Source: Escherichia coli (GTDB lineage Bacteria; Pseudomonadota; Gammaproteobacteria; Enterobacterales; Enterobacteriaceae). From it: a DNA stretch of 64,000 nt. Each line of letters starts with the position of its first letter. The first letter of the stretch is position 1. Shown here one piece after another: positions 22,355 to 45,913 of the stretch. The translations under genes and the position numbers were made by a program. The notes beneath the pieces are model-generated. The model did not search any database. It worked only from the letters and a program-made list of their open reading frames with translations, and had not been told where the DNA came from. The stretch lies in NCBI RefSeq assembly GCF_003334335.1, contig NZ_QOWQ01000005.1, one strand, 5' to 3'.

Positions 22355-23425
22355 GTGGAAAAGCCATTTCGAAAAATCCTGGTCATAAAGATGCGATATC
22401 ACGGAGATATGTTATTAACTACTCCTGTAATCAGTACACTCAAGCAGAATTATCCCGACGCAAAAATCGATATGCTGCTTTACCAGGATACAATTCCGAT
22501 TTTATCTGAAAACCCAGAAATTAATGCACTCTATGGTATAAGCAATAAAGGTACGGGAACATTCGATAAAATTAAAAATGCACTTTCACTGATAAAAACT
22601 CTGCGTGCGAATAATTACGACCTGGTCATTAATCTTACGGATCAGTGGATGGTGGCCCTGCTGGTACGTTGTTTACCTGCTCGTATGAAAATATCGCAGC
22701 TTTATGGTCATCGGCAGCATGGCATTTGGAAAAAAAGCTTTACACACTTAGCGCCTATACACGGTACACATATTGTTGAGCGTAATTTGTCGGTCCTTGA
22801 GCCATTAGGTATTACCGATTTTTATACTGAAACAACCATGAGTTACGCCGAGGATTGCTGGAAGAAAATGCGCCAGGAATTAGATGCACTGGGCGTGAAA
22901 GATCATTATGTCGTCATCCAGCCGACAGCCAGACAGATATTTAAGTGCTGGGACAACGATAAATTTTCTATGGTTATCGATGCGTTGCAACATCGTGGTT
23001 ATCAGGTTGTGCTGACTTGTGGCCCTTCGGCAGATGATCTCGCTTGCGTAGATGAAATTGCACGAGGCTGCCAAACAAAACCTATTACCGGCCTTGCCGG
23101 TAAAACACGTTTTCCTGAACTGGGCGCATTAATTGATCATGCAGTGCTCTTTATTGGTGTGGATTCTGCGCCGGGGCATATTGCAGCGGCTGTGAAGACG
23201 CCAGTTATTAGCCTGTTTGGGGCCACTGATCATGTATTCTGGCGTCCATGGACCGAGAATATTATTCAGTTCTGGGCGGGGAATTATCAAAAAATGCCTA
23301 CCCGGCACGAACTTGACCGCAACAAAAAATATCTTTCTGTTATTCCAGCGGAAGATGTCATTGCCGCTACGGAAAAGCTGTTGCCAGAAGATGCACCTTC
23401 AGCTGACAGGAATGCGCAATTATGA
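22355..23425 (+). CDS. waaQ: LPS heptosyltransferase III (GT9)
   Basis: GTG start with AAAGAG RBS; N-terminal KILVIKMRYHGDML aligns with the WaaC/WaaF N-terminal motifs, so the start must lie upstream of Met13. Confidence 0.8.
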   Translation: MEKPFRKILVIKMRYHGDMLLTTPVISTLKQNYPDAKIDMLLYQDTIPILSENPEINALYGISNKGTGTFDKIKNALSLIKTLRANNYDLVINLTDQWMVALLVRCLPARMKISQLYGHRQHGIWKKSFTHLAPIHGTHIVERNLSVLEPLGITDFYTETTMSYAEDCWKKMRQELDALGVKDHYVVIQPTARQIFKCWDNDKFSMVIDALQHRGYQVVLTCGPSADDLACVDEIARGCQTKPITGLAGKTRFPELGALIDHAVLFIGVDSAPGHIAAAVKTPVISLFGATDHVFWRPWTENIIQFWAGNYQKMPTRHELDRNKKYLSVIPAEDVIAATEKLLPEDAPSADRNAQL

Positions 23426-24546
23426 TCGTGGCATTTTGCTTATATAAATATTTTCCATTTGGTGGGCTACAGCGTGACTTTATGCGTATTGCCTCAACAG
23501 TTGCCGCACGGGGCCACCATGTTCGGGTATATACACAGTCGTGGGAAGGCGATTGCCCGGAAGCATTTGAGCTTATTCGCGTACCGGTTAAATCCCATAC
23601 TAACCATGGACGTAATGCAGAATATTATGCCTGGGTTCAAAACCATCTGAAGGCACATCCCGCTGATCGCGTTGTTGGCTTTAATAAGATGCCTAGGCTG
23701 GATGTTTATTTTGCCGCCGATGTCTGTTATGCCGAGAAAGTGGCGCAAGAAAAGGGATTTTTCTATCGTTTAACATCGCGCTATCGCCATTATGCTGCAT
23801 TCGAGCGAGCGACTTTCGAACATGGTAAATCGACGAAACTTATGATGTTGACCGATAAGCAAATCGCCGATTTTCAGAAGCATTACCAAACTGAACCAGA
23901 ACGTTTTCAAATTCTTCCCCCTGGTATCTATCCTGACAGAAAATACAACGCGCAAATCCCAAACAGTCGTGAAATTTATCGCCAGAAAAATGGCATCACT
24001 GAACAACAAAACTTATTGCTGCAGGTTGGTTCAGATTTTGGTCGTAAAGGTGTGGATCGCTCAATTGAAGCTTTGGCATCGTTACCAGAATCGTTACGCC
24101 ATAATACGTTGTTGTTTGTTGTTGGCCAGGATAAACCGCGTAAATTTGAAGTGCTGGCAGAAAAACTCGGTGTGCGTAGTAAAGTGCATTTCTTTTCCGG
24201 GCGGAATGATGTGTCTGAATTAATGGCAGCCGCTGATTTATTAATGCATCCCGCTTATCAGGAGGCTGCAGGTATTGTTCTCCTTGAGGCAATTGCCGCG
24301 GGATTACCTGTGTTGACGACTGCGGTATGCGGATACGCACACTATATCACAGATGCTAATTGTGGAACGGTCATCGCTGAACCTTTCTCCCAGGAACAAT
24401 TAAATGACGTTTTACGTAAAGCGTTAACTCAATCTCCATTGCGCATGGCCTGGGCGGAGAATGCTCGGTATTACGCCGATACTCAGGATTTATACAGCCT
24501 GCCGGAGAAAGCGGCAGATATCATTACAGGTGGTTTAGATGGTTGA
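23422..24546 (+). CDS. waaG: LPS core glucosyltransferase I (GT4)
   Basis: 374-aa ORF; ATGA start/stop overlap with waaQ. Confidence 0.9.
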
Positions 24547-25336
24547 ATTAGAAGAGCCACTTGCCACACTCTGGCGTGGTAAAGATGCCTTTGCAGAAGT
24601 TAAAAAACTGAATGGCGAGGTCTTCCGTGAACTGGAGACGCGTCGCACATTACGCTTTGAACTGGCCGGCAAAAGTTATTTCCTCAAATGGCACAAAGGG
24701 ACGACCCTAAAGGAGATTATAAAAAATCTGCTCTCATTGCGGATGCCCGTTTTAGGTGCAGACAGAGAGTGGCACGCTATTCATCGACTGCATGATGTCG
24801 GTGTTGATACGATGCACGGAATAGGATTTGGTGAAAAAGGGTTAAATCCATTAACTCGCACATCATTTATTATTACCGAAGATCTCACTCCCACAATTAG
24901 CCTTGAAGATTATTGTGCAGATTGGGCGGTCAACCCGCCTGATGTACATATTAAGCGTATGCTGATCGCGCGTGTGGCAACCATGGTGCGCAAAATGCAT
25001 GCAGCAGGGATTAATCACCGTGATTGTTATATCTGCCACTTTTTACTCCATTTGCCATTTACTGGCCGGGAAGATGAATTAAAAATTTCGGTTATCGATC
25101 TGCACCGGGCACAGATACGTGCAAAAGTACCACGTCGTTGGCGGGATAAAGATTTGATTGGTTTATATTTCTCATCAATGAATATTGGTCTGACGCAGAG
25201 AGATATCTGGCGATTTATGAAGGTTTATTTTGGGATGCCTTTACGCGATATTTATAGACTTGAGATTGATTTACTTAAAAAGGCAAGGATTAAAGCAGGA
25301 AAAATAGAAGCAAGAACAATAAGAAAAAACTTGTAA
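24539..25336 (+). CDS. waaP: LPS core heptose(I) kinase
   Basis: 265-aa ORF with kinase-like catalytic motifs ([11 protein letters not shown]); 8-nt overlap with waaG. Confidence 0.9.
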
Positions 25337-25368
25337 ATAGTATTTTATTACAAAAAGGGATTCTAAAA

Positions 25369-26349
25369 TTGTTGAAATATAGAAACTTCGTTGCTAAGAA
25401 GAAAAATTTATACCAAAACGAAGTGTCGTATGTTAAAAATTTACATATTGCACTATGCTTTGACCGTGAATTCATAATGCCAGCGGGTGTTGCATTATAT
25501 TCAATTATATCCAACAATAGACATATTAACCTTCATTTTCACCTTCTTATATCAGGCATAGAAGAAAAGGAGTGTTCAGCTTTTTACGAACTAGAAGGTC
25601 CTAATACATCAATATCTGTATATTATATAACTGATAAATTTGACATTAATCCGGATACATTAGTTCTTGGTATTCCTTTATCAACATGTTTACGTTTTTT
25701 AATCCCAGAAGTTATTGATGATAAAATAAATAAGATACTTTATCTTGACTGTGATGTCATATGTAATGGTCCTTTAGATGAACTGGTTGATTATAATTTA
25801 AATGCTGATATTGCATGTGTAATTCCAGATTCGCCAGAAATGCAAGAACGTGTAAAAAAATTAGACTATGGCATTGAGTTTATTAATTATTTTAATGCCG
25901 GGGTTATGTTTATTAATACCAGCGAATGGAAAAAAAATAATATAACACAAAAAGCGTTAGAAATGATCAACAGTGGAAAAGTATATAGGTATGCAGATCA
26001 GGATGTGCTCAATATTTTACTTAATGGACGAGTGCATTACCTTGATAAGAAGTACAATAATAAGACAACATTGTCAGTACGATGTGATGAAGAACAAAAA
26101 AACTTGCCCAACACAATTATAATGCATTATGTTACCCAGAATAAACCATGGTACAAAATATTTAGAGCACAAAATTTTGATCATTATTTTTCAAATTCTC
26201 CTTGGAAGAACCATAAAAGAAATCTAGCTCCATCATCAAGTGAGATTAGGTTAAAGTCTAAAGTTTTTTGGCTAGAAGGAAAATATTGTAAAGCCATTTC
26301 TTATTATTATAAGTATTTACTTGTTAAATTATTTGGCTTAAAGATTTAG
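25369..26349 (+). CDS. LPS core glycosyltransferase, GT8-like, at the waaS position
   Basis: 326-aa ORF from TTG start; YLDCDV (DxD), FNAGVMFIN and DQDVLN motifs shared with the two downstream GT8 paralogs; very low GC. Confidence 0.6.
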   Translation: MLKYRNFVAKKKNLYQNEVSYVKNLHIALCFDREFIMPAGVALYSIISNNRHINLHFHLLISGIEEKECSAFYELEGPNTSISVYYITDKFDINPDTLVLGIPLSTCLRFLIPEVIDDKINKILYLDCDVICNGPLDELVDYNLNADIACVIPDSPEMQERVKKLDYGIEFINYFNAGVMFINTSEWKKNNITQKALEMINSGKVYRYADQDVLNILLNGRVHYLDKKYNNKTTLSVRCDEEQKNLPNTIIMHYVTQNKPWYKIFRAQNFDHYFSNSPWKNHKRNLAPSSSEIRLKSKVFWLEGKYCKAISYYYKYLLVKLFGLKI

Positions 26350-26362
26350 CTGGAATGAAATT

Positions 26363-27442
26363 ATGAAAATAGCCTTTATTGGCGAAGCTGTTTCTGGATT
26401 TGGCGGCATGGAAACAGTCATTCGTGATGTTATTACTACCTTCAGGCAACAACATATCCAAAGTGAAATTTTTTTCTTTTGTCGTAATGACAAAATGGAT
26501 AAGGGATGGCTGGAAGGTATTAAGTACTCGTGTTCATTTTCCAATATTCGCTTAGGTTTTTTGCGTCGCGCGAAACATATTCATGCTTTAAGCAAATGGC
26601 TTCATGATTATCAGCCAGATGTTGTTATTTGTATTGACGTGATCTCGTGTTTGTATGCGGCCAAAGCTCGTAAAAAATCGGGGATTGATGTACCTGTATT
26701 TTCATGGCCGCATTTTTCTTTAGATCATAAAAAACATGCCGAATATATCACCTGTGCCGACTATCATTTAGCCATCAGCTCTGGTATTAAACAGCAAATG
26801 ATTAGCCGGGGTGTACCAGAATCGACAATAAACGTTATTTTTAATCCCGTTGAGGCGAAAAATTCAGTCATTCCTGCACCCGGGGAAGGCGAAACGGCAA
26901 CATTCATTTATGTTGGGCGCATGAAATTTGAAGGCCAAAAGCGCGTAAAAGATCTGCTTGATGGCTTATCACAAGTGCAAGGTGACTGGAAACTTCATGT
27001 ATTGGGAGATGGCTCCGATTTCGAAAAATGCCAGGCTTATGGTAGAGGATTAAATATTGATGATCGAATTGTCTGGTATGGTTGGCAACAACATCCCTGG
27101 AAATTAGTTCAGCAAGATATTAAAAAAGTGAGTGCATTATTACTCACGTCATCTTTTGAAGGTTTCCCAATGACTCTACTTGAAGCCTTGTCGTGGGGGA
27201 TCCCTTGTATCAGTGCAGATTGTGTCTCCGGGCCTGTTGATATCATTCAGCCTGATGTTAATGGTCATTTATATCAACCGGGGGATATGACCGGTTTTGT
27301 TGCTCTTCTCAATAAATACATAGCCGGTGAAATTCACATCGCACATGAAAAAATTCCGGCGTCGATCGATAAATTTTATCAACCGAAATATTACGACAGA
27401 TTGCAAAAGATAATTATTTCTGTTATTTCCCGGAGGAAATAA
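26363..27442 (+). CDS. waaB: LPS core alpha-1,6-galactosyltransferase (GT4)
   Basis: 359-aa ORF MKIAFIGEAVSGFGGMETV..., GT4 C-terminal EGFPMTLLEA motif. Confidence 0.8.
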   Translation: MKIAFIGEAVSGFGGMETVIRDVITTFRQQHIQSEIFFFCRNDKMDKGWLEGIKYSCSFSNIRLGFLRRAKHIHALSKWLHDYQPDVVICIDVISCLYAAKARKKSGIDVPVFSWPHFSLDHKKHAEYITCADYHLAISSGIKQQMISRGVPESTINVIFNPVEAKNSVIPAPGEGETATFIYVGRMKFEGQKRVKDLLDGLSQVQGDWKLHVLGDGSDFEKCQAYGRGLNIDDRIVWYGWQQHPWKLVQQDIKKVSALLLTSSFEGFPMTLLEALSWGIPCISADCVSGPVDIIQPDVNGHLYQPGDMTGFVALLNKYIAGEIHIAHEKIPASIDKFYQPKYYDRLQKIIISVISRRK

Positions 27443-28461
27443 TGCAGCAGGTTTTTTTCCAGGAGACTGAGTTTCTCAATTCGGTTATTGATTATAATCA
27501 TAAAATAGAAGCAGAAAATCTTTGTCTGGATATTGCTTATGGGACTGACAAAAATTTTCTTTTTGGATGCGGAATATCGATTGCTTCAATATTAAAATAT
27601 AATGAAGGAAATCAATTATGCTTTCATATTTTTACTGATTATTTCGGTGATGACGATCGCAAATATTTTGATGCCCTGGCCAGGCAATATAAAACAAGAA
27701 TTAAGATATATTTAATTAATGGTGATCGACTCCGTTCATTACCCTGCACCAAGAACTGGACTCATGCTATTTATTTTCGTTTTGTTATCGCCGATTACTT
27801 TTTTAATAAAGCACCCAAAGTTCTTTATCTGGATGCAGATATTATTTGTCAGGGAACTATAGAACCACTTATCAATTACACGTTTTCTGAACATACAGTC
27901 GCAATGGTTGTTACAGAAGGACAAAAAGACTGGTGGGCAAAACGTGCTCATTCGTTAGGTGTTGCTGGGATTGCTAATGGTTACTTTAACTCCGGTTTTT
28001 TACTGATTAATACTAATCAATGGACGAATGAGCGGGTTTCTGCACGGGCCATTGCAATGTTAAGTGATCCAGAGATAGTCAAAAAAATAACACATCCTGA
28101 TCAGGATGTATTAAATATGTTATTGGCAGACAAACTTGTTTATGCTGATATTAAATATAACACTCAGTTTAGTTTAAATTATCAACTAAAAGAAAGTTTT
28201 AAAAACCCAGTAACTAACGATACAGTTTTTATTCATTATATTGGTCCAACTAAACCCTGGCATGACTGGGCCTGGGATTATCCAATATCACAAGCTTTTA
28301 TGGCGGCAAAAAATGCTTCACCATGGAAGGATACTGCGTTATTGAAACCGGTTAATAGTAATCAATTAAGATACAGTGCTAAACATATGTTGAAAAAAAA
28401 GCAATATATCAAAGGATTTGGCAACTATCTTTTGTATTTTATAAAAAAGCTAAAGCATTAA
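27442..28461 (+). CDS. waaI: LPS core alpha-1,3-glycosyltransferase (GT8)
   Basis: 339-aa ORF; GT8 motifs YLDADIIC, FNSGFLLIN, DQDVLNMLL; 1-nt overlap with the waaB stop. Confidence 0.75.
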   Translation: MQQVFFQETEFLNSVIDYNHKIEAENLCLDIAYGTDKNFLFGCGISIASILKYNEGNQLCFHIFTDYFGDDDRKYFDALARQYKTRIKIYLINGDRLRSLPCTKNWTHAIYFRFVIADYFFNKAPKVLYLDADIICQGTIEPLINYTFSEHTVAMVVTEGQKDWWAKRAHSLGVAGIANGYFNSGFLLINTNQWTNERVSARAIAMLSDPEIVKKITHPDQDVLNMLLADKLVYADIKYNTQFSLNYQLKESFKNPVTNDTVFIHYIGPTKPWHDWAWDYPISQAFMAAKNASPWKDTALLKPVNSNQLRYSAKHMLKKKQYIKGFGNYLLYFIKKLKH

Positions 28462-28624
28462 TACTGATAATCTATACTCTAAATAATTCGAGTTGCAGGA
28501 CAAAAAGCCAGTGGCGTTTTGAGGAACGCTTGCGTTGGCCCTGAAATGCCGAGTAACTCGCCGATGCAGCACATGCAACTTGAAGTATAACGAGTATATA
28601 AAGTAATGATATAAGGATAGCCTT

Positions 28625-29641
28625 GTGAACTCATTTCCTGCCATAGAGATAGATAAAGTTAAAGCCTGGGATTTTAGGCTTATTGATGAAAATACTGCTG
28701 AAAGTTTAAATGTTGCCTATGGTGTCGATTCCAATTATCTTGATGGTGTAGGTGTTTCCATTACTTCAATTGTCATTAATAATCGACATGTTAATCTTGA
28801 TTTTTATATTATTGCTGATGTTTATAACGACGATTTCTTTCAAAAAGTTGAGAAACTTGCTGAGCAATACCAATTAAGAATCACACTTTATAGAATAAAT
28901 ACTGATAATCTTCAGTGCCTGCCTTGTACACAAGTCTGGTCAAGAGCAATGTACTTCCGTTTATTTGCTTTTCAATTATTGGGAGTAACACTTAATCGTT
29001 TGCTTTATCTTGATGCCGATGTAGTTTGTAAGGGAAATATTAGTCAACTATTGCATTTAGAGTTTAATGGAGCGGTGGCTGCAGTAGTCAGGGATGTAGA
29101 CCCAATGCAGGAAAAGGCGGTAGTCAGATTATCTGATCCTGAACTTCGGGGGCAGTATTTTAATTCTGGTGTCGTTTACTTAGACCTAAAAAAATGGACA
29201 GAAGCAAAACTAACCGAAAAAGCACTGTCTATTCTTATGAGTAAAGATAGTATTTATAAGTATCCTGACCAGGACGTTATGAATGTCCTACTAAAAGGGA
29301 TGACAATATTCCTGCCACGTGAGTTCAATACTATATATACAATAAAAAGTGAGTTAAAAGATAAAACGCATCAAAAATATAAAGAGTTGATAAAAGAGGA
29401 TACTCTTCTTATTCATTATACTGGGGCCACCAAGCCGTGGCACAAATGGGCAATTTATCCATCGGTAAAATACTATAAAATAGCTTTAGAAAGATCCCCC
29501 TGGAAAGATGACTCACCACGAGATGCAAAATCAATTATTGAATTCAAAAAAAGATATAAACATCTGTTAGTGCAACATCATTATATCTCAGGACTCATTG
29601 CAGGAGTGTGTTATCTTTGCCGAAAATATTACCGTAAATAA
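28625..29641 (+). CDS. waaJ: LPS core alpha-1,2-glycosyltransferase (GT8)
   Basis: 338-aa ORF from GTG start with AAGGA RBS; GT8 motifs YLDADVVC, FNSGVVYLD, DQDVMNVLL. Confidence 0.75.
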   Translation: MNSFPAIEIDKVKAWDFRLIDENTAESLNVAYGVDSNYLDGVGVSITSIVINNRHVNLDFYIIADVYNDDFFQKVEKLAEQYQLRITLYRINTDNLQCLPCTQVWSRAMYFRLFAFQLLGVTLNRLLYLDADVVCKGNISQLLHLEFNGAVAAVVRDVDPMQEKAVVRLSDPELRGQYFNSGVVYLDLKKWTEAKLTEKALSILMSKDSIYKYPDQDVMNVLLKGMTIFLPREFNTIYTIKSELKDKTHQKYKELIKEDTLLIHYTGATKPWHKWAIYPSVKYYKIALERSPWKDDSPRDAKSIIEFKKRYKHLLVQHHYISGLIAGVCYLCRKYYRK

Positions 29642-29658
29642 CATTTAACTGGTTTAAC

Positions 29659-30357
29659 ATGATTCAGAAGAATAAAATCAAAGATTTAGTTGTTTTTACC
29701 GATGAAAATAACTCAAAGTATCTCAATGTATTAAATGACTTTCTTTCTTATGATATTAATATCATCAAAGTTTTTCGTTCTATAGATGATACAAAAGTCA
29801 TGCTTATTGATACCGATTACGGTAAATTGATACTTAAAGTTTTTTCGCCTAAAGTAAAACGCAACGAACGTTTCTTTAAATCTCTTTTAAAGGGAGATTA
29901 TTATGAACGCCTTTTTGAGCATACTCAAAAAGTGCGTAACGAGGGGCTACATTCTCTCAATGATTTTTATTTGTTGGCAGAACGGAAAACATTACGTTTT
30001 GTCCATACTTATATCATGCTTATCGAATATATCGATGGCGTAGAGTTGTGTGATATCCCCGATATTGATGAAACTTTAAAAAATAAAATTCAACAATCAA
30101 TTCGTTCATTACACGAACACGGTATGGTATCTGGTGATCCTCACCGCGGTAATTTTATTATTGAAAATGGTGAAGTACGCATTATTGATCTTTCAGGAAA
30201 ACGGGCATCTGCACAACGTAAAGCGAAAGATCGTATTGATTTAGAGCGACATTATGGTATTAAGAATGAGGTTAAAGATCTCGGTTATTATCTTTTAGTT
30301 TATCGTAAAAAAATACGTAATCTTATGCGGCGTTTGAAAGGGAAGCCAGCACGATAA
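29659..30357 (+). CDS. waaY: LPS core heptose(II) kinase
   Basis: 232-aa ORF; small kinase-like protein at the position WaaY occupies in this cluster. Confidence 0.75.
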   Translation: MIQKNKIKDLVVFTDENNSKYLNVLNDFLSYDINIIKVFRSIDDTKVMLIDTDYGKLILKVFSPKVKRNERFFKSLLKGDYYERLFEHTQKVRNEGLHSLNDFYLLAERKTLRFVHTYIMLIEYIDGVELCDIPDIDETLKNKIQQSIRSLHEHGMVSGDPHRGNFIIENGEVRIIDLSGKRASAQRKAKDRIDLERHYGIKNEVKDLGYYLLVYRKKIRNLMRRLKGKPAR

Positions 30358-30428
30358 AGTAAAAGTCTTACATTTAAACGTCTTCGTCAGGACATTTCTA
30401 TGCGGAGTTCTTATTTCACAGGTTTATC

Positions 30429-31238
30429 ATGAAGAATATTAGATACATTGACAAAAAAGATGTTGAAAACCTGATAGAAAGTAAAACGTCTGATGATGTT
30501 ATTATTTTTCTTTCCGGCCCCGCATCGCAAAAAACACCATTGTCAGTGCTGCAGACAAGGGATGTTATTGCTGTCAATGGTTCTGCACAATATCTATTAA
30601 GTCATAATATTATTCCCTATATTTATGTACTTACCGATGTTCGCTTTTTACATCAACGGCGTGATGATTTTTATAAATTTAGCCAGAGAAGTCGTTATAC
30701 CATCGTAAATGTTGACGTTTATGAACATGCTTCTGAAGAAGATAAGCGGTACATCCTTCAAAACTGCCTGGTACTACGTTCATTTTACCGCAGAGAAAAA
30801 GGTGGATTGATCAAGAAGATCAAGTTTAATATTTTGAGCCGAATTCATAAAGAGCTCCTGATCTCTGTACCTTTTTCTAAAAAAGGTCGTCTGGTTGGCT
30901 TTTGCAAGGATATTAACCTCGGTTATTGTTCATGCCATACCGTTGCTTTTGCTGCAATCCAAATAGCCTATTCGCTGAAGTATGCTCGTATTATCTGTTC
31001 AGGCCTTGATTTAACGGGTAGCTGTTCGCGTTTCTATGATGAAGATAAGAATCCTATGCCCTCAGAGTTGACTCGGGATTTATTCAAAATTTTACCATTT
31101 TTCCGTTTTATGCGTGAAAATATAGAAGATATCAATATTTATAATTTATCCGACGATACTGCAATTCAATATGATATTATTCCCTATATGAAAATATCCG
31201 AAATTGAAGAGCCGTGTGTTTATGAAAAAATAAGCTAA
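30429..31238 (+). CDS. waaZ: LPS core biosynthesis protein WaaZ (KdoIII-associated)
   Basis: 269-aa ORF at the WaaZ position in the WaaY-WaaZ-WaaK order; assignment by position and size. Confidence 0.65.
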   Translation: MKNIRYIDKKDVENLIESKTSDDVIIFLSGPASQKTPLSVLQTRDVIAVNGSAQYLLSHNIIPYIYVLTDVRFLHQRRDDFYKFSQRSRYTIVNVDVYEHASEEDKRYILQNCLVLRSFYRREKGGLIKKIKFNILSRIHKELLISVPFSKKGRLVGFCKDINLGYCSCHTVAFAAIQIAYSLKYARIICSGLDLTGSCSRFYDEDKNPMPSELTRDLFKILPFFRFMRENIEDINIYNLSDDTAIQYDIIPYMKISEIEEPCVYEKIS

Positions 31239-31290
31239 TATTTTATATGTGTTTATTACGTGTTATAAATTATATTGGAGTTGGCTAATA

Positions 31291-32433
31291 ATGATTAAAA
31301 AAATAATATTTACCGTCACACCAATATTTTCTATACCGCCAAAAGGAGCTGCAGCGGTTGAAACATGGATTTATCAGGTCGCAAAAAGACTTTCGATTCC
31401 AGTAACTATCGCCTGTATTCGAAACGAAGGTTACCCAACCTACACAAAAGTAAATGATCACTGTGATATTCACTACATTGGTTTTAGTCGAGTCTATAAA
31501 CGACTTTTCCAAAAGTGGACTCGACTTGATCCTGTGCCATATTCTCAGCGTATTTTAAATACCCAACCTAAAAACACTGATCCGAAAGACTCTGTTATTG
31601 TTATCCACAATAGCATGAAGCTGTATAAACAGATTCGTAGCAGAAGCCCTCACGCGCAGCTAGTTATGCATCTTCATAATGCTTTCGAGCCAGGTGAGTT
31701 AGACAAAAATGCAAAGATAATTGTTCCTAGCCAGTTTCTTTTCGATTTCTATTCGGAAAAAATGCCTGATGCAAATATTGCTATTGTGCCTAATGGTTTT
31801 TGTTCTGAATCGTATGAACAAAATAATACTGAAGATTTGAGGCAGAAACTGAACATTGATGCAAATGATACCGTGTTATTATTTGCAGGAAGGATATCAC
31901 CAGATAAAGGTTGCCTGATGCTTATGGAGGCTTTTAATCAGCTGAATAAGATACAAGATAACCTCAAACTGGTGATTGTCGGAGATCCTTTTGCCAGTAA
32001 AAAAGGCGAAAAAGCTGAATATCAGAAAAAAGTTCTGGATGCAGCGAAAGCTATTGGAGCGCAATGCATTATGGCGGGTGGACAGCCTCCAGAGCAGATG
32101 CATAACTATTACCGTTTAGCAGATTTAGTTGTTGTTCCTTCTCAGGTAGAAGAAGCTTTTTGTATGGTAGCTGTTGAAGCGATGGCGGCAGGTAAACCAG
32201 TGCTTGCCAGTCAAAAAGGTGGAATTAGTGAGTTTGTTCTGGAAGGAATTACAGGCTATCACCTTGCAGAGCCTATGACATCTGAAAGTATTCTCGCGGA
32301 TATTAAGCGCGTTTTGGCGGATGCTGACAGAGCTCAAATTGCTAAAAATGCCCGAAATTTTGTTTTCTCAAAATATAGCTGGGAACATGTTACTCAGCGT
32401 TTTGAAGCACAAATACAAGACTGGTTTGGTTAA
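31291..32433 (+). CDS. waaK: LPS core GlcNAc transferase-like glycosyltransferase (GT4), Salmonella/R2-type
   Basis: ORF 31249..32433 trimmed to ATG 31291 (GGAG RBS at 31277-31280), 380 aa; GT4 fold; size fits WaaK rather than the K-12 WaaU length I recall. Confidence 0.65.
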   Translation: MIKKIIFTVTPIFSIPPKGAAAVETWIYQVAKRLSIPVTIACIRNEGYPTYTKVNDHCDIHYIGFSRVYKRLFQKWTRLDPVPYSQRILNTQPKNTDPKDSVIVIHNSMKLYKQIRSRSPHAQLVMHLHNAFEPGELDKNAKIIVPSQFLFDFYSEKMPDANIAIVPNGFCSESYEQNNTEDLRQKLNIDANDTVLLFAGRISPDKGCLMLMEAFNQLNKIQDNLKLVIVGDPFASKKGEKAEYQKKVLDAAKAIGAQCIMAGGQPPEQMHNYYRLADLVVVPSQVEEAFCMVAVEAMAAGKPVLASQKGGISEFVLEGITGYHLAEPMTSESILADIKRVLADADRAQIAKNARNFVFSKYSWEHVTQRFEAQIQDWFG

Positions 32434-32452
32434 AAATTATTGGATTTGAAGA

Positions 32453-32488
32453 GCCTGCCTGAACTTAATGTCAGGCAGGCTTTTTTTT
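32453..32488. terminator. Bidirectional terminator between convergent waaK and waaL
   Basis: Perfect 10-bp stem gcctgcctga / tcaggcaggc with 8-nt loop and T8 run; the waaL stop codon lies within the T-run. Confidence 0.7.
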
Positions 32489-33704
32489 ATTTATTCCGCA
32501 TTGCTAACAGTAAACCAACAATCAAGCCAATTGGTTTGAGATCAACTTCCTCGAAGTTACCTCGAATAATATAAAAGCTTACAAGCGTTAAAAATAGTAG
32601 TAATTGACCATTATAAGGAGTGACGACAACTGTTTTAAACGTTGCATTAGCTGTCTCTTTGATAATAGAGCCATACAGATAAAGTAAAGCGAGTAGTCCA
32701 GCCAAACCCGCTGCAAACCAAATTGACAAAACAACGTTGTGTGGCCCAATGGATTGCCTGAACTTCCATGACGGAAAATCTACAACACGCTTATTATATA
32801 TTGCATGGTAAATATCATCGCCGTAGCCATATCCCTTAAGAGGATTTTCCATAATTAATGTCCACGCCGTACCTTGAGTACCATTGGTATAGCGATAAGA
32901 ACTGTCGGTCTGTTGAAGTTTATAAATAAGCCTGTCTTTACCAGCATGATCACCTTTATAGGTAAATACACCCACTGCGGCAACAGAAATAACGATGGAA
33001 GTCAGCATCAATAATTTCCACTGACGATTTAAGATTAACCATAGCAGAGTCACTATGAATACTGCCAGCCATGCACCACGAGACAGCGTTCCTAATAGCA
33101 GAAATAAGAAAACTGCACTAAAAATTACGAATGCTATTTTATAAGAGGTTTTCTTGATAAGCCAAAGGTTTAATAATGCTGGAAACAGAAACACCATTGA
33201 ATCGGAAATACTACGGTGTTCATAGGTGGAAAATGGCATTATTCCTTTATTATAATCCTGAATATAAAGAATAAGTTCAACAAGACAACGTAAGCCAAGT
33301 CCGGTAACTAATGAGTATAGTACAATTTTACCAATGCTTTCATTATCTTCATCTTTTAATAATGCAGGTATAAGTAAACTATAGGCCAAAAATCCTTTAA
33401 GTACCGTATTACTGAATTCTTTAAAACTGATTTTCAGATCAGGTGATATAAAAGTAGCATATAAAAGAATGAGTGATAGTGCCAGGACACTATAAAAAAG
33501 ATTATTTTTATAGAGTACTTTAAATGTTCCCGGAGCACGAGAAACTTGATAGATTACCGTAATAATCATTAGTATAGATATGATGTGTTTATAACGGGTT
33601 ATACCATCAAGGAAAAAGGTTGCAATAAAGAGGAATACCAACGCTTTATTCCAGTACGGTTTCCACTTTTCTTTATTACGTAGCGCCAGCGAGGCTGTTA
33701 ACAT
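32487..33704 (-). CDS. waaL: O-antigen ligase
   Basis: 405-aa polytopic membrane ORF MLTASLALRNKEKWKPYWNKALVFLF...; N-terminus resembles the Salmonella/R2-type WaaL I recall, not the K-12 WaaL. Confidence 0.85.
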   Translation of the reverse strand: MLTASLALRNKEKWKPYWNKALVFLFIATFFLDGITRYKHIISILMIITVIYQVSRAPGTFKVLYKNNLFYSVLALSLILLYATFISPDLKISFKEFSNTVLKGFLAYSLLIPALLKDEDNESIGKIVLYSLVTGLGLRCLVELILYIQDYNKGIMPFSTYEHRSISDSMVFLFPALLNLWLIKKTSYKIAFVIFSAVFLFLLLGTLSRGAWLAVFIVTLLWLILNRQWKLLMLTSIVISVAAVGVFTYKGDHAGKDRLIYKLQQTDSSYRYTNGTQGTAWTLIMENPLKGYGYGDDIYHAIYNKRVVDFPSWKFRQSIGPHNVVLSIWFAAGLAGLLALLYLYGSIIKETANATFKTVVVTPYNGQLLLFLTLVSFYIIRGNFEEVDLKPIGLIVGLLLAMRNK

Positions 33705-33742
33705 TGCTTCTCCACCATCTTAAATAATATATAACGTATTAA

Positions 33743-34699
33743 TCAGGAATTGATTTTATTAAATACCGTTTCTGCAGTCAGATGAGCAAGATCTTTATCT
33801 GGTGCCCTACAAACCACCTGATTCTTCCCATATCCGCCAATTAATCCCGGATCGGTTGGTCCATAAACCGTGATATTCGGTCGATCCAGTGCTGCAGTTA
33901 AATGACTTAACCCAGTGTCTACCGATACCACGAATTTCGCTCCGGCCAGCACACGGGCAACACCTTCCAGACTCATCTTCGGCAATACTTCAACATAAGC
34001 AAATCCTTCCGCCAGTCGTTTCGCCCGTTTTTCCTCATGCGGCGCACCCCACGGAAGTTTAATGCGAATCCCTGAATCTGCCAGTAAACCAATCAATTCT
34101 CGCCAGTGTTCTTCCGGCCAGTGTTTATCATCACGGGTCGTCGCATGAAGAAATACGGCATATTCGCCAGCATCTGTAGGCAGGTTCGTCAGAAAATGCT
34201 GTGCGATAGCATAATCGCCCTGGGTTTGCGGTTTGCTATAGCCCAGACTTTTGGCAAAAAGTTCGCGGATGCGTTCTACGGCGTGCTGCTGTTTTGCAAT
34301 ATGATGTTTACGATTGTAAAACAGGCTGGCTAAAGGTTCGCGAGCGGTTTGCCAGTCCATTCCATGCTTTACGCCATGCGCCAGACGCGTCACCAGCGCC
34401 GCGCTTTTTACCAGCCCCTGAGCATCGATAACTGCGTCATAGTTCTCTGCTTGTAGCGCTTCACGAAACGCTTTGCGTTCAGCTTTTATGGGGGCCGAGA
34501 ACCAGGCTTTACGCCAGCGACGTATTGCCACAGGAATAACTCGCTCAACGGCGGCGTGCCAGGAAGGAATCTGTGCGAACCCTTCTTCCACCACCCAGTC
34601 AAACTTAATCCCTGGGATTGCCTGCTGGGCATCAGTGAGTGCGGGCAACGTATGGAGAACATCGCCCATCGACGATGTTTTAACGATCAAAACCCGCAT
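33743..34699 (-). CDS. waaC: LPS heptosyltransferase I (GT9)
   Basis: 318-aa ORF MRVLIVKTSSMGDVLHTLPALTDA. Confidence 0.9.
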   Translation of the reverse strand: MRVLIVKTSSMGDVLHTLPALTDAQQAIPGIKFDWVVEEGFAQIPSWHAAVERVIPVAIRRWRKAWFSAPIKAERKAFREALQAENYDAVIDAQGLVKSAALVTRLAHGVKHGMDWQTAREPLASLFYNRKHHIAKQQHAVERIRELFAKSLGYSKPQTQGDYAIAQHFLTNLPTDAGEYAVFLHATTRDDKHWPEEHWRELIGLLADSGIRIKLPWGAPHEEKRAKRLAEGFAYVEVLPKMSLEGVARVLAGAKFVVSVDTGLSHLTAALDRPNITVYGPTDPGLIGGYGKNQVVCRAPDKDLAHLTAETVFNKINS

Positions 34700-34702
34700 C
34701 CG

Positions 34703-35749
34703 TCAGGCTTCCTCTTGTAACAATAGAGAGTTGAGTTCTTCCAGCACGCGCTGGGGAGTAATGTCGATCAAGCTCTGGTGATAACCTTCTGCGGCGTCGC
34801 CTTTGCGTACTTTGTGATAGCCGGTAATCAGGCGGATCACGCGCGCTTTATGGGATAGCGGCGGTGTGAAGTCCGGGCTACTCGGACCATACAGGGCAAC
34901 CAGCGGACGATTGAGCGCCGCCGCAACGTGCATCAGGCCAGAATCGTTAGTGACAATGGCTTTACAGGCTGCAATCAGGATAACCGCTTGATCAAGCTGT
35001 GTTTCCCCCGCCAGGTTCCGGCACCATGCCTGCTGCTCGGTATTTAAAGCGGCAAGAATCTCATTGCCCGCTTCATGATCTTTCGCCGAGCCAAACAGAA
35101 CCACTTGATAACCTTCATCAATCAGTTGCTTTGCCAGTTCCGCATAGTGGTAGTGTGGCCAGCGTTTTGCCGGACCAAACTCCGCACCCGGGCAAAAACC
35201 AATCATTGGACGTTCTGATGAAAGCGAAAATTGATTACAGGTATATGATTTTTCACCTTCGCTCACCTGCAACTGCGGCCATAACAATGGCTGCGGCAGA
35301 TCTTGTGCGGTACGCATAATACCTTTGTCATAGGCCAGCGCCACATAGCGTTCCACCATCAGCGGCCAGGCTTCTTTATCCAGCACACGCACATCGTTGA
35401 GTAAACCGTAGCGCATTTCGCCGCGCCAGCCGGTGCGATGAGGAATACCCGCGAAGAAAGGCACTAATGCGGATTTGAAGGAGTTGGGTAAAACGTAGGC
35501 GCGGTCGTAACGTTTTTCGCGCAGGCTATGACCCAGCTTGCGGCGTTCGCCAATTTCCAGCGCCCCGTGACCAAGCGGCATAGGAATGGCTTCGTTAACT
35601 TCCGGCATCCGCGATAATAATGGACGGCACCATGCCGGTGCCATCACGTCGATTATCGCCTGGGGATAGCGCGCCTGGAGCGTGCGATAGAGACTTTGCG
35701 ACATCATCATGTCGCCAACCCATGACGGGCCGATCACCAATATTTTCAT
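34703..35749 (-). CDS. waaF: LPS heptosyltransferase II (GT9)
   Basis: 348-aa ORF MKILVIGPSWVGDMMMSQSLYRTL. Confidence 0.9.
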   Translation of the reverse strand: MKILVIGPSWVGDMMMSQSLYRTLQARYPQAIIDVMAPAWCRPLLSRMPEVNEAIPMPLGHGALEIGERRKLGHSLREKRYDRAYVLPNSFKSALVPFFAGIPHRTGWRGEMRYGLLNDVRVLDKEAWPLMVERYVALAYDKGIMRTAQDLPQPLLWPQLQVSEGEKSYTCNQFSLSSERPMIGFCPGAEFGPAKRWPHYHYAELAKQLIDEGYQVVLFGSAKDHEAGNEILAALNTEQQAWCRNLAGETQLDQAVILIAACKAIVTNDSGLMHVAAALNRPLVALYGPSSPDFTPPLSHKARVIRLITGYHKVRKGDAAEGYHQSLIDITPQRVLEELNSLLLQEEA

Positions 35750-35828
35750 TCACTTCATCCTTCAAGCTGTCTCTGCGGCGGCTGCCTGCGTTCACTCCGG
35801 TCACTTACTTTTGTAAGCTCCCGGAGAT

Positions 35829-36809
35829 TCACTTAGTTGCTGCCTTGATACTGCTCGAATGATTTTGTGAATTTACGTTGATGTCGCGATTCAGCCAGGC
35901 CATGTATTCCGTTACGCCTTCGGCAACGGTTTTGAACGGTTTGTCATAACCCGCCGCGCGCAGATTCGTCAGATCTGCCTGCGTGAATGCCTGATAGCGG
36001 CCTTTCAGTTTATCCGGGAACGGAATGTATTCGATCTGGCCTTTCTTGTGATAAGCAAGCGTTGCATCGGCTACCGCCTGGAAGGATTCCGCACGACCAG
36101 TACCGAGGTTGAAGATGCCGGAAACGCCATTTTCCAGGAACCACAGGTTTACATCTGCCACGTCGCCAACATAGACGAAGTCGCGTTTAAAGTTCTCGCT
36201 ACCTTCGAACAGTTTCGGTGATTCACCGTTATTAAGCTGGGTGTTGAGATGGAAAGCGACGCTCGCCATGCTGCCTTTATGGCCTTCACGCGGTCCATAA
36301 ACGTTGAAATAACGGAAGCCAACAATCTGTGAGTTTGCTTCCGGCAGAATTTGACGAACATATTCATCAAACAGGAATTTCGAGTAACCGTAGACGTTCA
36401 ACGGTTTTTCGTACTCGCGGGATTCAATAAAGTCGGAAGTGCGACCGCCGTAAGTGGCTGCGGATGAAGCGTACAGGAACGGGATTTCACGCTCCAGGCA
36501 GTAGTGCAGCAGCTCCTTGGAGTATTGATAGTTGTTATCCATCATATACTTGCCGTCCCACTCGGTGGTGGAAGAGCACGCGCCTTCGTGGAAAATCGCT
36601 TCGACATCGCCGAACTCTTCGCCAGCCATAATCTGGATCAGGAAGTCTTCCTTATCCATATAGTCTGCGATATTCAGGTCCACCAGGTTCACAAACTTGG
36701 TGCCGTCTTTCAGGTTGTCCACCACCAGAATATCGGTGATGCCTTTGTCATTCAGGGCTTTAACGATGTTGCTGCCGATAAAGCCCGCGCCGCCGGTAAC
36801 GATGATCAT
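35829..36809 (-). CDS. hldD: ADP-L-glycero-D-manno-heptose 6-epimerase, with a 16-residue C-terminal extension
   Basis: 326-aa [22 protein letters not shown] (Rossmann); ends ...[23 protein letters not shown] where I recall the canonical protein ending ...AWLNRDA (310 aa). Confidence 0.85.
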
Positions 36810-37022
36810 AACTGTAACCTTCGAATTGTGGAGTCAGAGACAATCTCAGACACGAATACTTCTATCATATCACTACACGGCGCTGGCTACAGCCATTCAC
36901 CGAAAGTGGTATGCCTGAGCGTGATTTATGCTTATTTTTTGACAAGTACAAATGCTTCATCTCGTATCAACCTATGGCTTTCGGTAATATGTGCTGAAAT
37001 TTGCCCAGTCTGGAGAATCGCG

Positions 37023-38219
37023 ATGCGTGGAGATTTTTATCAGCAGTTAGCCAACGATCTGGAAACCGCTCGTGCGGAAGGATTGTTTAAAGAAGAGCGC
37101 ATTATCACATCCGCTCAACAAGCGGATATCACTGTGGCGGATGGTAGCCACGTCATTAACTTTTGTGCCAATAACTACCTGGGGCTGGCGAACCACCCGG
37201 AACTGATTGCGGCAGCAAAAGCGGGAATGGATTCTCATGGTTTCGGCATGGCTTCGGTGCGTTTTATTTGTGGCACTCAGGACAGCCACAAAGAGCTTGA
37301 GCAGAAGCTGGCTGCATTCCTGGGGATGGAAGATGCGATTCTCTACTCTTCCTGCTTTGATGCTAACGGTGGCCTGTTTGAAACACTGCTGGGTGCGGAA
37401 GACGCCATTATCTCCGACGCACTGAACCACGCGTCTATTATTGATGGTGTGCGTCTGTGTAAAGCTAAACGCTATCGCTATGCCAACAACGATATGCAGG
37501 AGCTTGAAGCTCGTCTGAAAGAAGCGCGTGAAGCCGGTGCGCGTCATGTGCTGATTGCCACCGATGGTGTGTTCTCGATGGACGGCGTGATTGCCAATCT
37601 GAAGGGCGTTTGCAATCTGGCAGATAAATACGATGCCCTGGTGATGGTAGACGACTCCCACGCGGTCGGTTTTGTCGGTGAAAACGGTCGTGGTTCCCAT
37701 GAATACTGCGATGTGATGGGCCGGGTCGATATTATCACCGGTACGCTTGGTAAAGCGCTGGGCGGGGCTTCTGGTGGTTATACCGCGGCGCGCAAAGAAG
37801 TGGTTGAGTGGCTACGCCAGCGTTCTCGTCCGTACCTGTTCTCCAACTCGCTGGCACCAGCGATTGTCGCCGCTTCCATCAAAGTGCTGGAGATGGTTGA
37901 AGCGGGCAGCGAGCTACGTGACCGTTTGTGGGCGAACGCGCGTCAGTTCCGTGAGCAAATGTCGGCGGCGGGCTTTACCCTGGCGGGAGCCGATCACGCC
38001 ATTATTCCGGTCATGCTTGGCGATGCGGTAGTGGCGCAGAAATTTGCTCGTGAGCTGCAAAAAGAGGGGATTTACGTCACCGGTTTCTTCTATCCGGTCG
38101 TTCCGAAAGGTCAGGCGCGTATTCGTACCCAGATGTCTGCGGCGCATACCTCTGAGCAAATTACGCGCGCAGTAGAAGCATTCACGCGTATTGGTAAACA
38201 ACTGGGCGTTATCGCCTGA
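37023..38219 (+). CDS. kbl: 2-amino-3-ketobutyrate CoA ligase (glycine C-acetyltransferase)
   Basis: ORF track 36504..38219 is over-extended antisense through hldD; true N-terminus [27 protein letters not shown] (398 aa). Confidence 0.9.
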
Positions 38220-44314: not shown

Positions 44315-44558
44315 TGCGACAACCTCATACTCAAGAGTCAAAATTTGCGTAATTTTACTACAGCTGAATCGATAAAATAGCCTCTGAAGATCAAAATATA
44401 CGACCGCTCGCGGCAAGCCGATGCCAGATTTGCGCTTTTTTTTCGTCGTGCCCCGCAAAATTGCATTCCAGTTAACGCGCTGGCTGTATTTGCCGCACCG
44501 CGCAGGTATACTCCTTTCCTGGTTTTTTTAATCACTACGTCGGGAGTTGTTACCCCCC

Positions 44559-44990
44559 ATGCAAGAAATTATGCAATTTGTTGGCCGTCATCCCATACTG
44601 AGTATCGCCTGGATCGCGTTACTGGTGGCGGTTCTTGTGACTACGTTTAAGAGCCTGACCTCGAAAGTGAAGGTGATTACTCGTGGTGAAGCTACGCGTC
44701 TGATCAACAAAGAAGACGCTGTGGTTGTGGATTTACGTCAGCGTGATGACTTCCGTAAAGGCCATATCGCAGGTTCTATCAATCTGTTGCCGAGCGAAAT
44801 CAAAGCCAACAATGTTGGTGAGCTTGAGAAGCACAAAGACAAACCGGTTATCGTGGTAGACGGTTCTGGCATGCAGTGCCAGGAGCCTGCAAACGCGCTG
44901 ACGAAAGCTGGTTTTGCGCAAGTATTCGTGCTGAAAGAGGGCGTTGCTGGCTGGGCTGGCGAAAACTTGCCTCTGGTGCGCGGCAAATAA
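44559..44990 (+). CDS. yibN: Rhodanese-domain membrane-anchored protein
   Basis: ORF 44547..44990 trimmed to [21 protein letters not shown] (143 aa). Confidence 0.8.
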
Positions 44991-45131
44991 TTTACCTGTC
45001 GTCTTTCATGATGCAGGCCGTTAGCTGCAATTAGGCCCCCAGCGACTTATTGTTATAAGCTTCTGGGGACACTCCATTTTGCAGCCGCCCTGCAACATGA
45101 AATTTCAGGGTAAAAAAACAGGAGCTAAATT

Positions 45132-45383
45132 ATGGCCAATGTTGAAATCTATACCAAAGAAACCTGCCCGTATTGCCATCGTGCAAAAGCACTGCTGAGC
45201 AGCAAGGGCGTGAGTTTTCAGGAGTTGCCGATCGATGGCAATGCCGCCAAGCGTGAAGAGATGATCAAACGCAGCGGTCGCACCACGGTTCCCCAGATTT
45301 TTATTGACGCACAGCACATTGGCGGCTGTGATGACTTGTATGCATTGGATGCACGTGGTGGACTGGATCCCCTGCTGAAATAA
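45132..45383 (+). CDS. grxC: Glutaredoxin 3
   Basis: 83-aa ORF with CPYC active site. Confidence 0.92.
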
Positions 45384-45445: not shown

Positions 45446-45913
45446 ATGTCAGAACAAAACAACACTGAAATGACTTTCCAGATCCAACGTATTTATACCA
45501 AGGATATCTCTTTCGAAGCGCCGAACGCGCCGCACGTTTTCCAGAAAGATTGGCAACCAGAAGTTAAACTTGATCTGGATACGGCATCTTCCCAACTGGC
45601 AGATGACGTATACGAAGTGGTACTGCGTGTTACCGTAACGGCCTCCCTGGGCGAAGAAACCGCGTTCCTGTGTGAAGTTCAGCAGGGCGGTATTTTCTCC
45701 ATCGCGGGTATCGAAGGCACCCAGATGGCACATTGCCTGGGCGCATACTGCCCGAACATTCTGTTCCCGTATGCTCGTGAGTGCATCACCAGCATGGTAT
45801 CCCGCGGTACATTCCCGCAACTGAACCTTGCGCCGGTTAACTTCGATGCGCTGTTCATGAACTATTTGCAGCAGCAGGCTGGCGAAGGTACTGAAGAACA
45901 TCAGGATGCCTGA
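45446..45913 (+). CDS. secB: Protein-export chaperone SecB
   Basis: 155-aa [32 protein letters not shown]. Confidence 0.95.

Follow-up and report, generated by a model that had tools for sequence, protein, structure and literature searches.

The hldD (rfaD) gene in the stretch of Escherichia coli DNA analyzed here (the window: 64,000 nt of contig NZ_QOWQ01000005.1, assembly GCF_003334335.1) encodes an ADP-glyceromanno-heptose 6-epimerase, HldD, of 326 instead of 310 residues, and we are nearly certain that this is a natural allele, brought about by an ERIC repeat positioned over the gene's end. The explanation that accounts best for the data overall, and that we hold to be very probably correct, is that the ERIC element replaced the end of hldD, that the resulting peptide tail is a by-product, and that the element is maintained as an RNA hairpin. 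The 326-aa HldD is therefore a legitimate common allele and not a frameshift, a pseudogene or an assembly fault, and it is the ERIC signature that reveals the cause. A mobile repeat appears to have landed on the stop codon of a housekeeping lipopolysaccharide (LPS) gene, to have supplanted the ribosome-binding site of waaF (rfaF), the gene that follows, and to have stayed nearly unchanged across genera. The ERIC-extended hldD as such is thereby explained and ordinary; the added interest is in its conservation between genera, its compensatory hairpin and its takeover of the waaF ribosome-binding site.

The hldD gene is a minus-strand ATG-to-TGA open reading frame (ORF), and the NCBIfam model NF008360 (ADP-glyceromanno-heptose 6-epimerase) matches its product with 676 bits against a cut-off of 452, covering residues 1-309 only. 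These same residues are 100% identical to the crystallised E. coli enzyme (PDB 1EQ2, 310 aa), so that the family model and the crystal structure both end at residue 309/310, exactly where the extra HldD residues start. In K-12 and O157 the rfaD product likewise has 310 aa with the C-terminus AWLNRDA, and the junction reads CGCGAC GCA TAA GAGCTCTGC ATG(waaF), with a gap of only 9 nt between rfaD and rfaF. Aligned with K-12, the window carries 133 bp (35750-35882) in place of 15 bp, a net gain of 118 bp that sets the waaF ATG 118 bp farther off, and this block is made up of a 9-nt linker and an ERIC repeat. The window gene has thus lost the Ala310 codon, the TAA stop and the short spacer to a 127-bp ERIC between Asp309 and the waaF ATG. 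The original prediction for this locus had called a 326-aa frame against a canonical 310-aa protein ending in AWLNRDA, and both statements agree with the ORF list and with K-12, O157 and 1EQ2; its reading of the coding strand, CGCGAC-ATCAAC-GTAAATTCAC, is also exactly what the window holds. The ancestor that it expected, CGCGAC-GC-GTAAATTCAC, is not what K-12 reads and occurs in none of the 85 loci fetched, and the small frameshifting indel by which it explained the missing stop is ruled out by the K-12 and O157 alignment, which shows instead an addition of 118 bp of a known repeat.

Assignment of the element to the ERIC repeats was made against the 127-nt E. coli ERIC/RU-1 consensus in Table 1a of Delihas 2007 (PMC2759123), with which window positions 35873-35747 agree at 97 of 127 positions without a gap. 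The sites of the ERIC-PCR primers ERIC1R and ERIC2, whose sequences are found together in 233 published papers, match at 19 of 22 positions each (35811-35832 and 35789-35810). Using blastn, we found copies of the element in all 5,426 complete E. coli genomes, at 2-15 places per genome (median 9) and mostly in unannotated intergenic DNA; one such paralog, between hsdM and hsdR of K-12, shows 82.7% identity. Both checks run on an ERIC origin, namely alignment of the 127 nt with ERIC copies and the presence of paralogs, support it. An exact pattern search for the ERIC core allowing up to 3 mismatches gave no match, the window copy having 6 mismatches in the 44-nt core. Rfam, which has no ERIC family, returned no family at threshold, and its only match was RF02818 V_AS5, a Vibrio antisense RNA (35751-35874; 29.6 bits against a gathering score of 96). 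The 129-nt V_AS5 model matches the element from end to end (E = 4e-4), but at this score the element is not a member, and V_AS5 belongs to another genus and is an antisense RNA by name; V_AS5 is probably itself an ERIC-type repeat.

That the extension is short follows from the orientation of the repeat. In the consensus ERIC, all three frames close in the orientation found in the window, after 14, 23 and 3 codons, so the tail that an ERIC on a stop codon can add is necessarily short; in the reverse orientation the element leaves two frames open along its entire length. Consensus frame 1 encodes YTQNNSSCSKAASE followed by a stop, and the 14-codon stretch of the window runs parallel to it. HldD has 326 aa because translation, having crossed the linker, continues in ERIC frame 1 as far as the core TGA (Table 1). 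Buttiauxella retains a GCA codon (Ala310) directly ahead of the element, which is consistent with an insertion at the TA of the TAA stop, although the original target is not reconstructable from the sequence.

Table 1. Positions of hldD, the ERIC element and waaF features in the window
Feature	Position	Strand	Basis
hldD (rfaD) coding sequence, 326 codons + TGA	35829..36809	-	ORF list; NCBIfam NF008360
Canonical HldD part, codons 1-309; last codon GAC = Asp309	35883..36809	-	K-12 and O157 alignment
Linker ATCAACGTA, 9 nt (Ile-Asn-Val), from Asp309 to ERIC; replaces GCA-TAA of ERIC-free alleles	35874..35882	-	K-12 comparison
17 tail codons; last 14 = ERIC frame 1	35832..35882	-	Consensus frame comparison
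Private SNP in tail: coding-strand A, AGT Ser for GGT Gly	35852	-	Comparison with other junctions
hldD stop TGA = TGA within conserved ERIC core (GAGTGAATCC)	35829..35831	-	Consensus alignment
ERIC/IRU/RU-1 element, 127 nt, Wilson & Sharp consensus orientation on hldD sense strand	35747..35873	-	Gapless consensus alignment, 97/127
Outer stem, 5' strand, within hldD tail codons	35847..35872	-	Inverted repeat; consensus-structure helices 1-2
Central inverted repeat (apical stem-loop; ERIC-PCR primer region)	35795..35826	-	Arms 35795-35808 and 35813-35826; fold
Outer stem, 3' strand, with waaF Shine-Dalgarno and A and U of AUG	35748..35773	-	Inverted repeat; consensus structure
waaF Shine-Dalgarno AAGGA, 8 nt 5' of ATG; locus-specific change from consensus AAATA	35758..35762	-	Invariant in 18/18 orthologs
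waaF (rfaF) coding sequence; ATG 35747-35749 aligns with last three ERIC bases	34703..35749	-	ORF list; NCBIfam NF008162 RfaF, 752 bits

The junction is not peculiar to this contig. Of the 5,426 complete E. coli genomes, 480 (about 9%) carry a single chromosomal copy of it, and 466 of these copies match the window at 99% identity or more. None of the 5,426 is 100% identical to the window over the junction; the window carries a private SNP in the tail (Table 1), and the exact Ser-variant HldD protein occurs on 9 contigs. The 326-aa protein is annotated as RfaD by PGAP (WP_000587766.1) and is found on at least 1,000 contigs in a large protein collection, in which the 90%-identity cluster holding this RfaD also has proteins named RfaF and a 352-aa representative, a composition that looks like a clustering artefact. 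A genuine strain polymorphism, one of the options offered by the original prediction, is thus borne out. The prediction had also named two findings that would speak against it, of which one applies and the other does not: the allele is indeed common, whereas the 310-aa terminus that it gave is correct.

We then turned to other species, in a sample of 80 hldD loci with one genome per species. An ERIC occupies the same position in the same orientation in 17 of the 80 loci, which represent 17 other species and about 10 genera: Citrobacter, Enterobacter, Klebsiella (oxytoca and michiganensis), Raoultella, Leclercia, Superficieibacter, Pseudocitrobacter, Phytobacter and Buttiauxella, together with the Enterobacteriaceae metagenome-assembled genome UBA3516. 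In ERIC-positive loci, 160 nt typically separate the EYMAWL motif from the waaF ATG; the remaining 63 loci end in NRDA and a stop, or in something very similar, with a 1-16 nt spacer after it. Identity to the window copy is 94-96% for the orthologous copies and no more than 83% for E. coli paralogs, with 76-78% for the consensus; at the right end, all orthologs have in common the locus-specific derived states AAATAT to AAGGAT and GACGGGTATA to GAAGTGAATG. These sequence comparisons strongly favour a single origin over repeated insertion; separate insertions at a hotspot are unlikely in view of the shared derived states and of the gap between orthologs and paralogs.

Folding of the element RNA gave one long imperfect hairpin of -55.8 kcal/mol (z = -4.46), a value that none of 200 shuffles equalled, and the K-12 junction, when folded, gave no significant structure. 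Across the orthologous copies, a set of only 18 sequences, RNAalifold yielded a 33-pair hairpin in which 98.3% of cells are paired, compared with 31-45% when partners are slid. Seven pairs have changed on both sides, against 2.6 +/- 0.9 in shuffles that do not correct for phylogeny (0 of 500 reach 7) and 0-1 when slid. In the Klebsiella/Phytobacter group, one compensatory pair links the C-to-T change behind the early TAA to a G-to-A change that lies 115 nt from it, beside the waaF AUG. The hldD-sense strand has 39 G.U cells against 2 A.C cells, and this bias indicates that pairing operates in the mRNA sense and not in the antisense strand or a DNA cruciform. Mean between-genus identity is 0.66 at third codon positions of hldD, 0.58 at those of waaF and 0.52 in the 9-nt linker, the most variable segment across genera, compared with 0.85 for the ERIC overall, 0.91 for its inner 3' arm and 0.95 for its outer 3' arm, the most conserved segment, which holds the waaF Shine-Dalgarno sequence and AUG. 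Collectively, these results make it probable that the hairpin is a selected sense-strand RNA structure. The first 150 nt of waaF (35600-35749) also stand out, with a between-genus third-position identity of 0.77-0.79 against 0.51-0.55 further in; this high identity is seen in ERIC-positive and ERIC-free species alike and suggests an additional constraint at the nucleotide level.

The element sits between the co-oriented hldD and waaF genes, and hldD, waaF and waaC are co-transcribed in K-12. We looked for promoter-like and terminator-like sites within the element and found none. From its sequence and position, the likely role would be that of an intercistronic mRNA element acting on waaF translation or on mRNA stability. 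The outer-stem partners of the waaF Shine-Dalgarno sequence and AUG sit in hldD tail codons, and the hldD stop lies at or past the first outer helix in every ortholog. In the mechanism that we propose, the element would be kept as RNA in the hldD-waaF-waaC mRNA, its outer stem pairing hldD tail codons with the Shine-Dalgarno sequence and start codon of waaF, whose ribosome-binding site is a locus-specific modification of the right end of ERIC. Ribosomes finishing hldD would melt this outer stem and briefly free the waaF initiation region, linking waaF initiation to hldD translation, and such coupling via melting would keep the tight link that ERIC-free alleles may have from their 1-16 nt spacer. 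Alternatively or additionally, unfolding could uncover a site for a nuclease, in line with the proposal made for ERICs of Yersinia. Translational coupling specifically is a tentative proposal, to which we give somewhat less than even weight. If it is true that the hairpin controls waaF, then ERIC-positive and ERIC-free strains of one species would constitute a natural on/off pair for ERIC function, for which, to our knowledge, there is little direct evidence besides the work on Yersinia.

Several observations pull the other way and temper this reading. In an equilibrium ribosome-mask folding model, a ribosome parked on the window's own TGA leaves the waaF Shine-Dalgarno sequence and AUG closed, and the waaF start region opens only in early-stop variants; coupling in the full-tail form would hence have to be transient, which lowers confidence in simple coupling. 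The covariation shuffles leave phylogeny uncorrected, with n = 18. About 91% of E. coli and most species examined are without the element, so that it is dispensable. The apical part of the orthologs (alignment columns 62-101) is of two types, the canonical GGGAGCTTACAAAAGTAAGTGACC and AGGAGCATAGAATAACGATGTGACT, which do not follow taxonomy and which split K. oxytoca from K. michiganensis, suggesting some conversion or lateral exchange of the central segment. Finally, the element termini read AATTCAC...GTGAATG, no clean TA...TA is left, and a TA target-site duplication is not recognisable.

Translational coupling by long-range mRNA pairing is classical, as between the coat and replicase genes of phage MS2. 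The hldD-waaF arrangement resembles such coupling in that the downstream initiation region would be sequestered by pairing with a segment inside the upstream frame, and differs from it in that the pairing partner comes from a mobile repeat and in that the coupling is deduced and supported by the model for early-stop variants only. A different role, which we consider somewhat unlikely, is that of an mRNA processing or stability element that sets the ratio of hldD to waaF-waaC mRNA and does not act on translation initiation, whether by way of a right-arm RNase E site that translation would unmask, through RNase III acting on the long stem, or as a barrier to 3' exonucleases. The stable, conserved sense-strand hairpin that overlaps the stop codon fits this role, and so does the model of De Gregorio et al. 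2005 as reviewed in PMC2229807, PMC3184786 and PMC10969869. Yersinia ERICs overlapping stop codons, in an orientation termed B, reportedly modulate mRNA levels, and an RNase E site has been proposed; these elements are co-transcribed and, as at hldD, overlap the upstream stop codon, and translating ribosomes are expected to block the hairpin and unmask the right arm. The feature unmasked in the Yersinia model is an RNase E site, whereas the right arm of the hldD copy has the waaF Shine-Dalgarno sequence and AUG. Against a processing role, the consensus right arm has an AU-rich stretch (GAAATATGA) where this copy has the Shine-Dalgarno sequence (GAAGGATGA), and the most conserved part of the element is exactly the waaF initiation region. 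Coupling and a role in processing or stability are not exclusive and can coexist.

Maintenance of the element as an RNA hairpin has further to be weighed against neutrality, that is, against a selfish insertion persisting as a relic without a role, with its similarity across genera due to family-wide constraints or gene conversion. The polymorphism for presence and absence within E. coli (480/5,426) and among congeneric species shows that the element is dispensable, as neutrality would have it, and the two apical types at odds with taxonomy suggest some conversion. Neutrality is nonetheless quite unlikely: it is at variance with the 94-96% identity of orthologs across genera compared with at most 83% for E. 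coli paralogs and 76-78% for the consensus, with the locus-specific derived states (AAATAT to AAGGAT) in all copies and the presence of compensatory changes, and with an adjoining linker and silent sites that are far more diverged than the element itself.

That the 17-residue tail is a functional addition to HldD, serving its stability, assembly or localisation, with the frame kept open for it, is highly improbable. Nine lineages retain the full tail, its 17 residues being found in E. coli and seven other species, and its sequence is near-constant, NSQNHSSGIKAATK. Other orthologs end earlier, however, with tails of 15 residues in Buttiauxella, 11 in two species (by a 14-nt deletion), 7 in one species and 5 in five, and with another stop in Citrobacter sp. 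Cu233. The stop lies inside the element in all 18 orthologs and at four different positions among them, and we count at least four independent truncations of the tail (TCA-TAA, AAT-TAA, the 14-nt deletion, and AAT-TAA in Citrobacter Cu233). Former tail codons, even where untranslated, are still 0.90 identical to the consensus, compared with 0.96 in full-tail lineages, whereas the three residues encoded by the linker vary freely, and NF008360 and 1EQ2 end at 309/310. Because the tail has been truncated independently at least four times, the constraint would lie on the RNA and not on the peptide, and the tail peptide is, by this sequence evidence, a by-product whose harmlessness we infer from its frequency in nature. 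The chance that a sequencing or assembly error, engineering or a small frameshifting indel produced the junction is practically nil, and the two other options of the original prediction, error and engineered change, are excluded, given an identical junction in 480 independent genomes, the protein on at least 1,000 contigs, and orthologs in other genera.

The flanks of the element bear on its history. Over the proximal 150 nt, the window flanks are 96-98% identical to K-12, but only 88-93% identical to alleles of other genera that carry the ERIC. Third-position identity does not differ among pairs of two ERIC-positive alleles, of two ERIC-free alleles and of one of each, so that ERIC-positive flanks have no excess similarity. 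A recent import of a foreign segment is ruled out by these Escherichia-like flanks, which reach up to the element, and by the absence of any extra similarity among the flanks of ERIC-positive alleles. Since the diverged linker would be carried along whenever the element was transferred, its divergence argues for copies that are old and not recently spread. In E. coli Z1323CEC0014 (locus L085) the ERIC lies between K-12-type SNPs on both sides, and the strain encodes the K-12 RfaF protein; this pattern implies that recombination parts the element from its flanks within tens of bases. The base ahead of the waaF ATG in this strain is C, as in K-12, and one outer-stem pair is broken. The patchy distribution may reflect an old polymorphism, repeated replacement by ERIC-free alleles, or old lateral exchange. 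A fuller account would make the element a domesticated mobile repeat whose hairpin took over the waaF ribosome-binding site and ties the synthesis of heptosyltransferase II, or the stability of the operon mRNA, to hldD translation, and which has been retained over a very long period, polymorphic for presence and absence across species and genus borders and shuffled by short-patch recombination in conserved flanks, possibly via differing ratios of LPS inner-core enzymes. Taken as a whole, this account is unlikely, if worth stating. In Citrobacter sp. Cu233 the orthologous ERIC is broken by two nested insertions (locus L007, about 2400-2702), giving an hldD-waaF distance of 302 nt; each insertion starts GTGACAAAT..GTCTGGAAC..TTTGAAC and looks like another small palindromic repeat.

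The ERIC, IRU or RU-1 repeats of Enterobacteriaceae are reportedly those of Sharples & Lloyd 1990, Hulton et al. 1991 and Wilson & Sharp 2006. The hldD-waaF copy shares with them the length of 127 nt, the central inverted repeat with both ERIC-PCR primer sites and the long imperfect hairpin, as well as a multi-copy, dispersed occurrence between co-oriented operon genes with a presence that varies among strains. It differs from them in having no TA...TA termini, in a right end remodelled to a Shine-Dalgarno sequence and start-codon context, and in its conservation between genera, which far exceeds that of ERIC paralogs inside one genome. ERIC repeats, their variability among strains and their occasional in-frame fusion to gene ends were already known (Delihas 2007, PMC2759123; PMC2229807, PMC3184786, PMC10969869). 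The ERIC (RU-1) frames fused to gene 3' ends include those of Erwinia carotovora tdh, ECA0168 (361 against 341 aa), and of the amidase ECA3499 (PMC2759123). As in these fusions, a conserved housekeeping enzyme is lengthened at its C-terminus by an in-frame ERIC on the 3' end, here 326 against 310 aa; they use the opposite orientation with its open 42-codon frame, whereas the hldD copy lies in the orientation that stops all frames, and at hldD the peptide is dispensable and the RNA conserved. Neither hldD nor rfaD is among the ERIC fusion cases listed in Delihas 2007 (PMC2759123), and we found no paper on an ERIC at hldD-waaF in the literature searched, which lacked key primary ERIC papers.

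Upstream of hldD, K-12 and O157 have yibB (htrL) between kbl and rfaD. This gene is missing from window positions 36810-37022 and from strain L73, and kbl (37023-38219 in the window, plus strand) is the immediate upstream neighbour of hldD. On the other side, an LPS core cluster at 22355-34699 comprises rfaQ, a glycosyltransferase gene, rfaP, a GT8-like gene, rfaB, rfaI, a second GT8-like gene, rfaY, an unassigned ORF and a gene for an rfaK-like GlcNAc transferase, followed by rfaL and rfaC (minus strand); this LPS core gene set is Salmonella/R2-like. A second, degenerate ERIC-like stretch at 44993-45096, with 69% identity to the consensus over 108 nt, lies between a rhodanese-like ORF (44547-44990) and an 83-aa ORF (45132-45383), upstream of secB (45446-45913). 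Positions 28473-28498, which fall between two waa-cluster glycosyltransferase genes (27442-28461 and 28625-29641), match the left end of the consensus ERIC over 26 nt (92%) and could be what is left of such a repeat.

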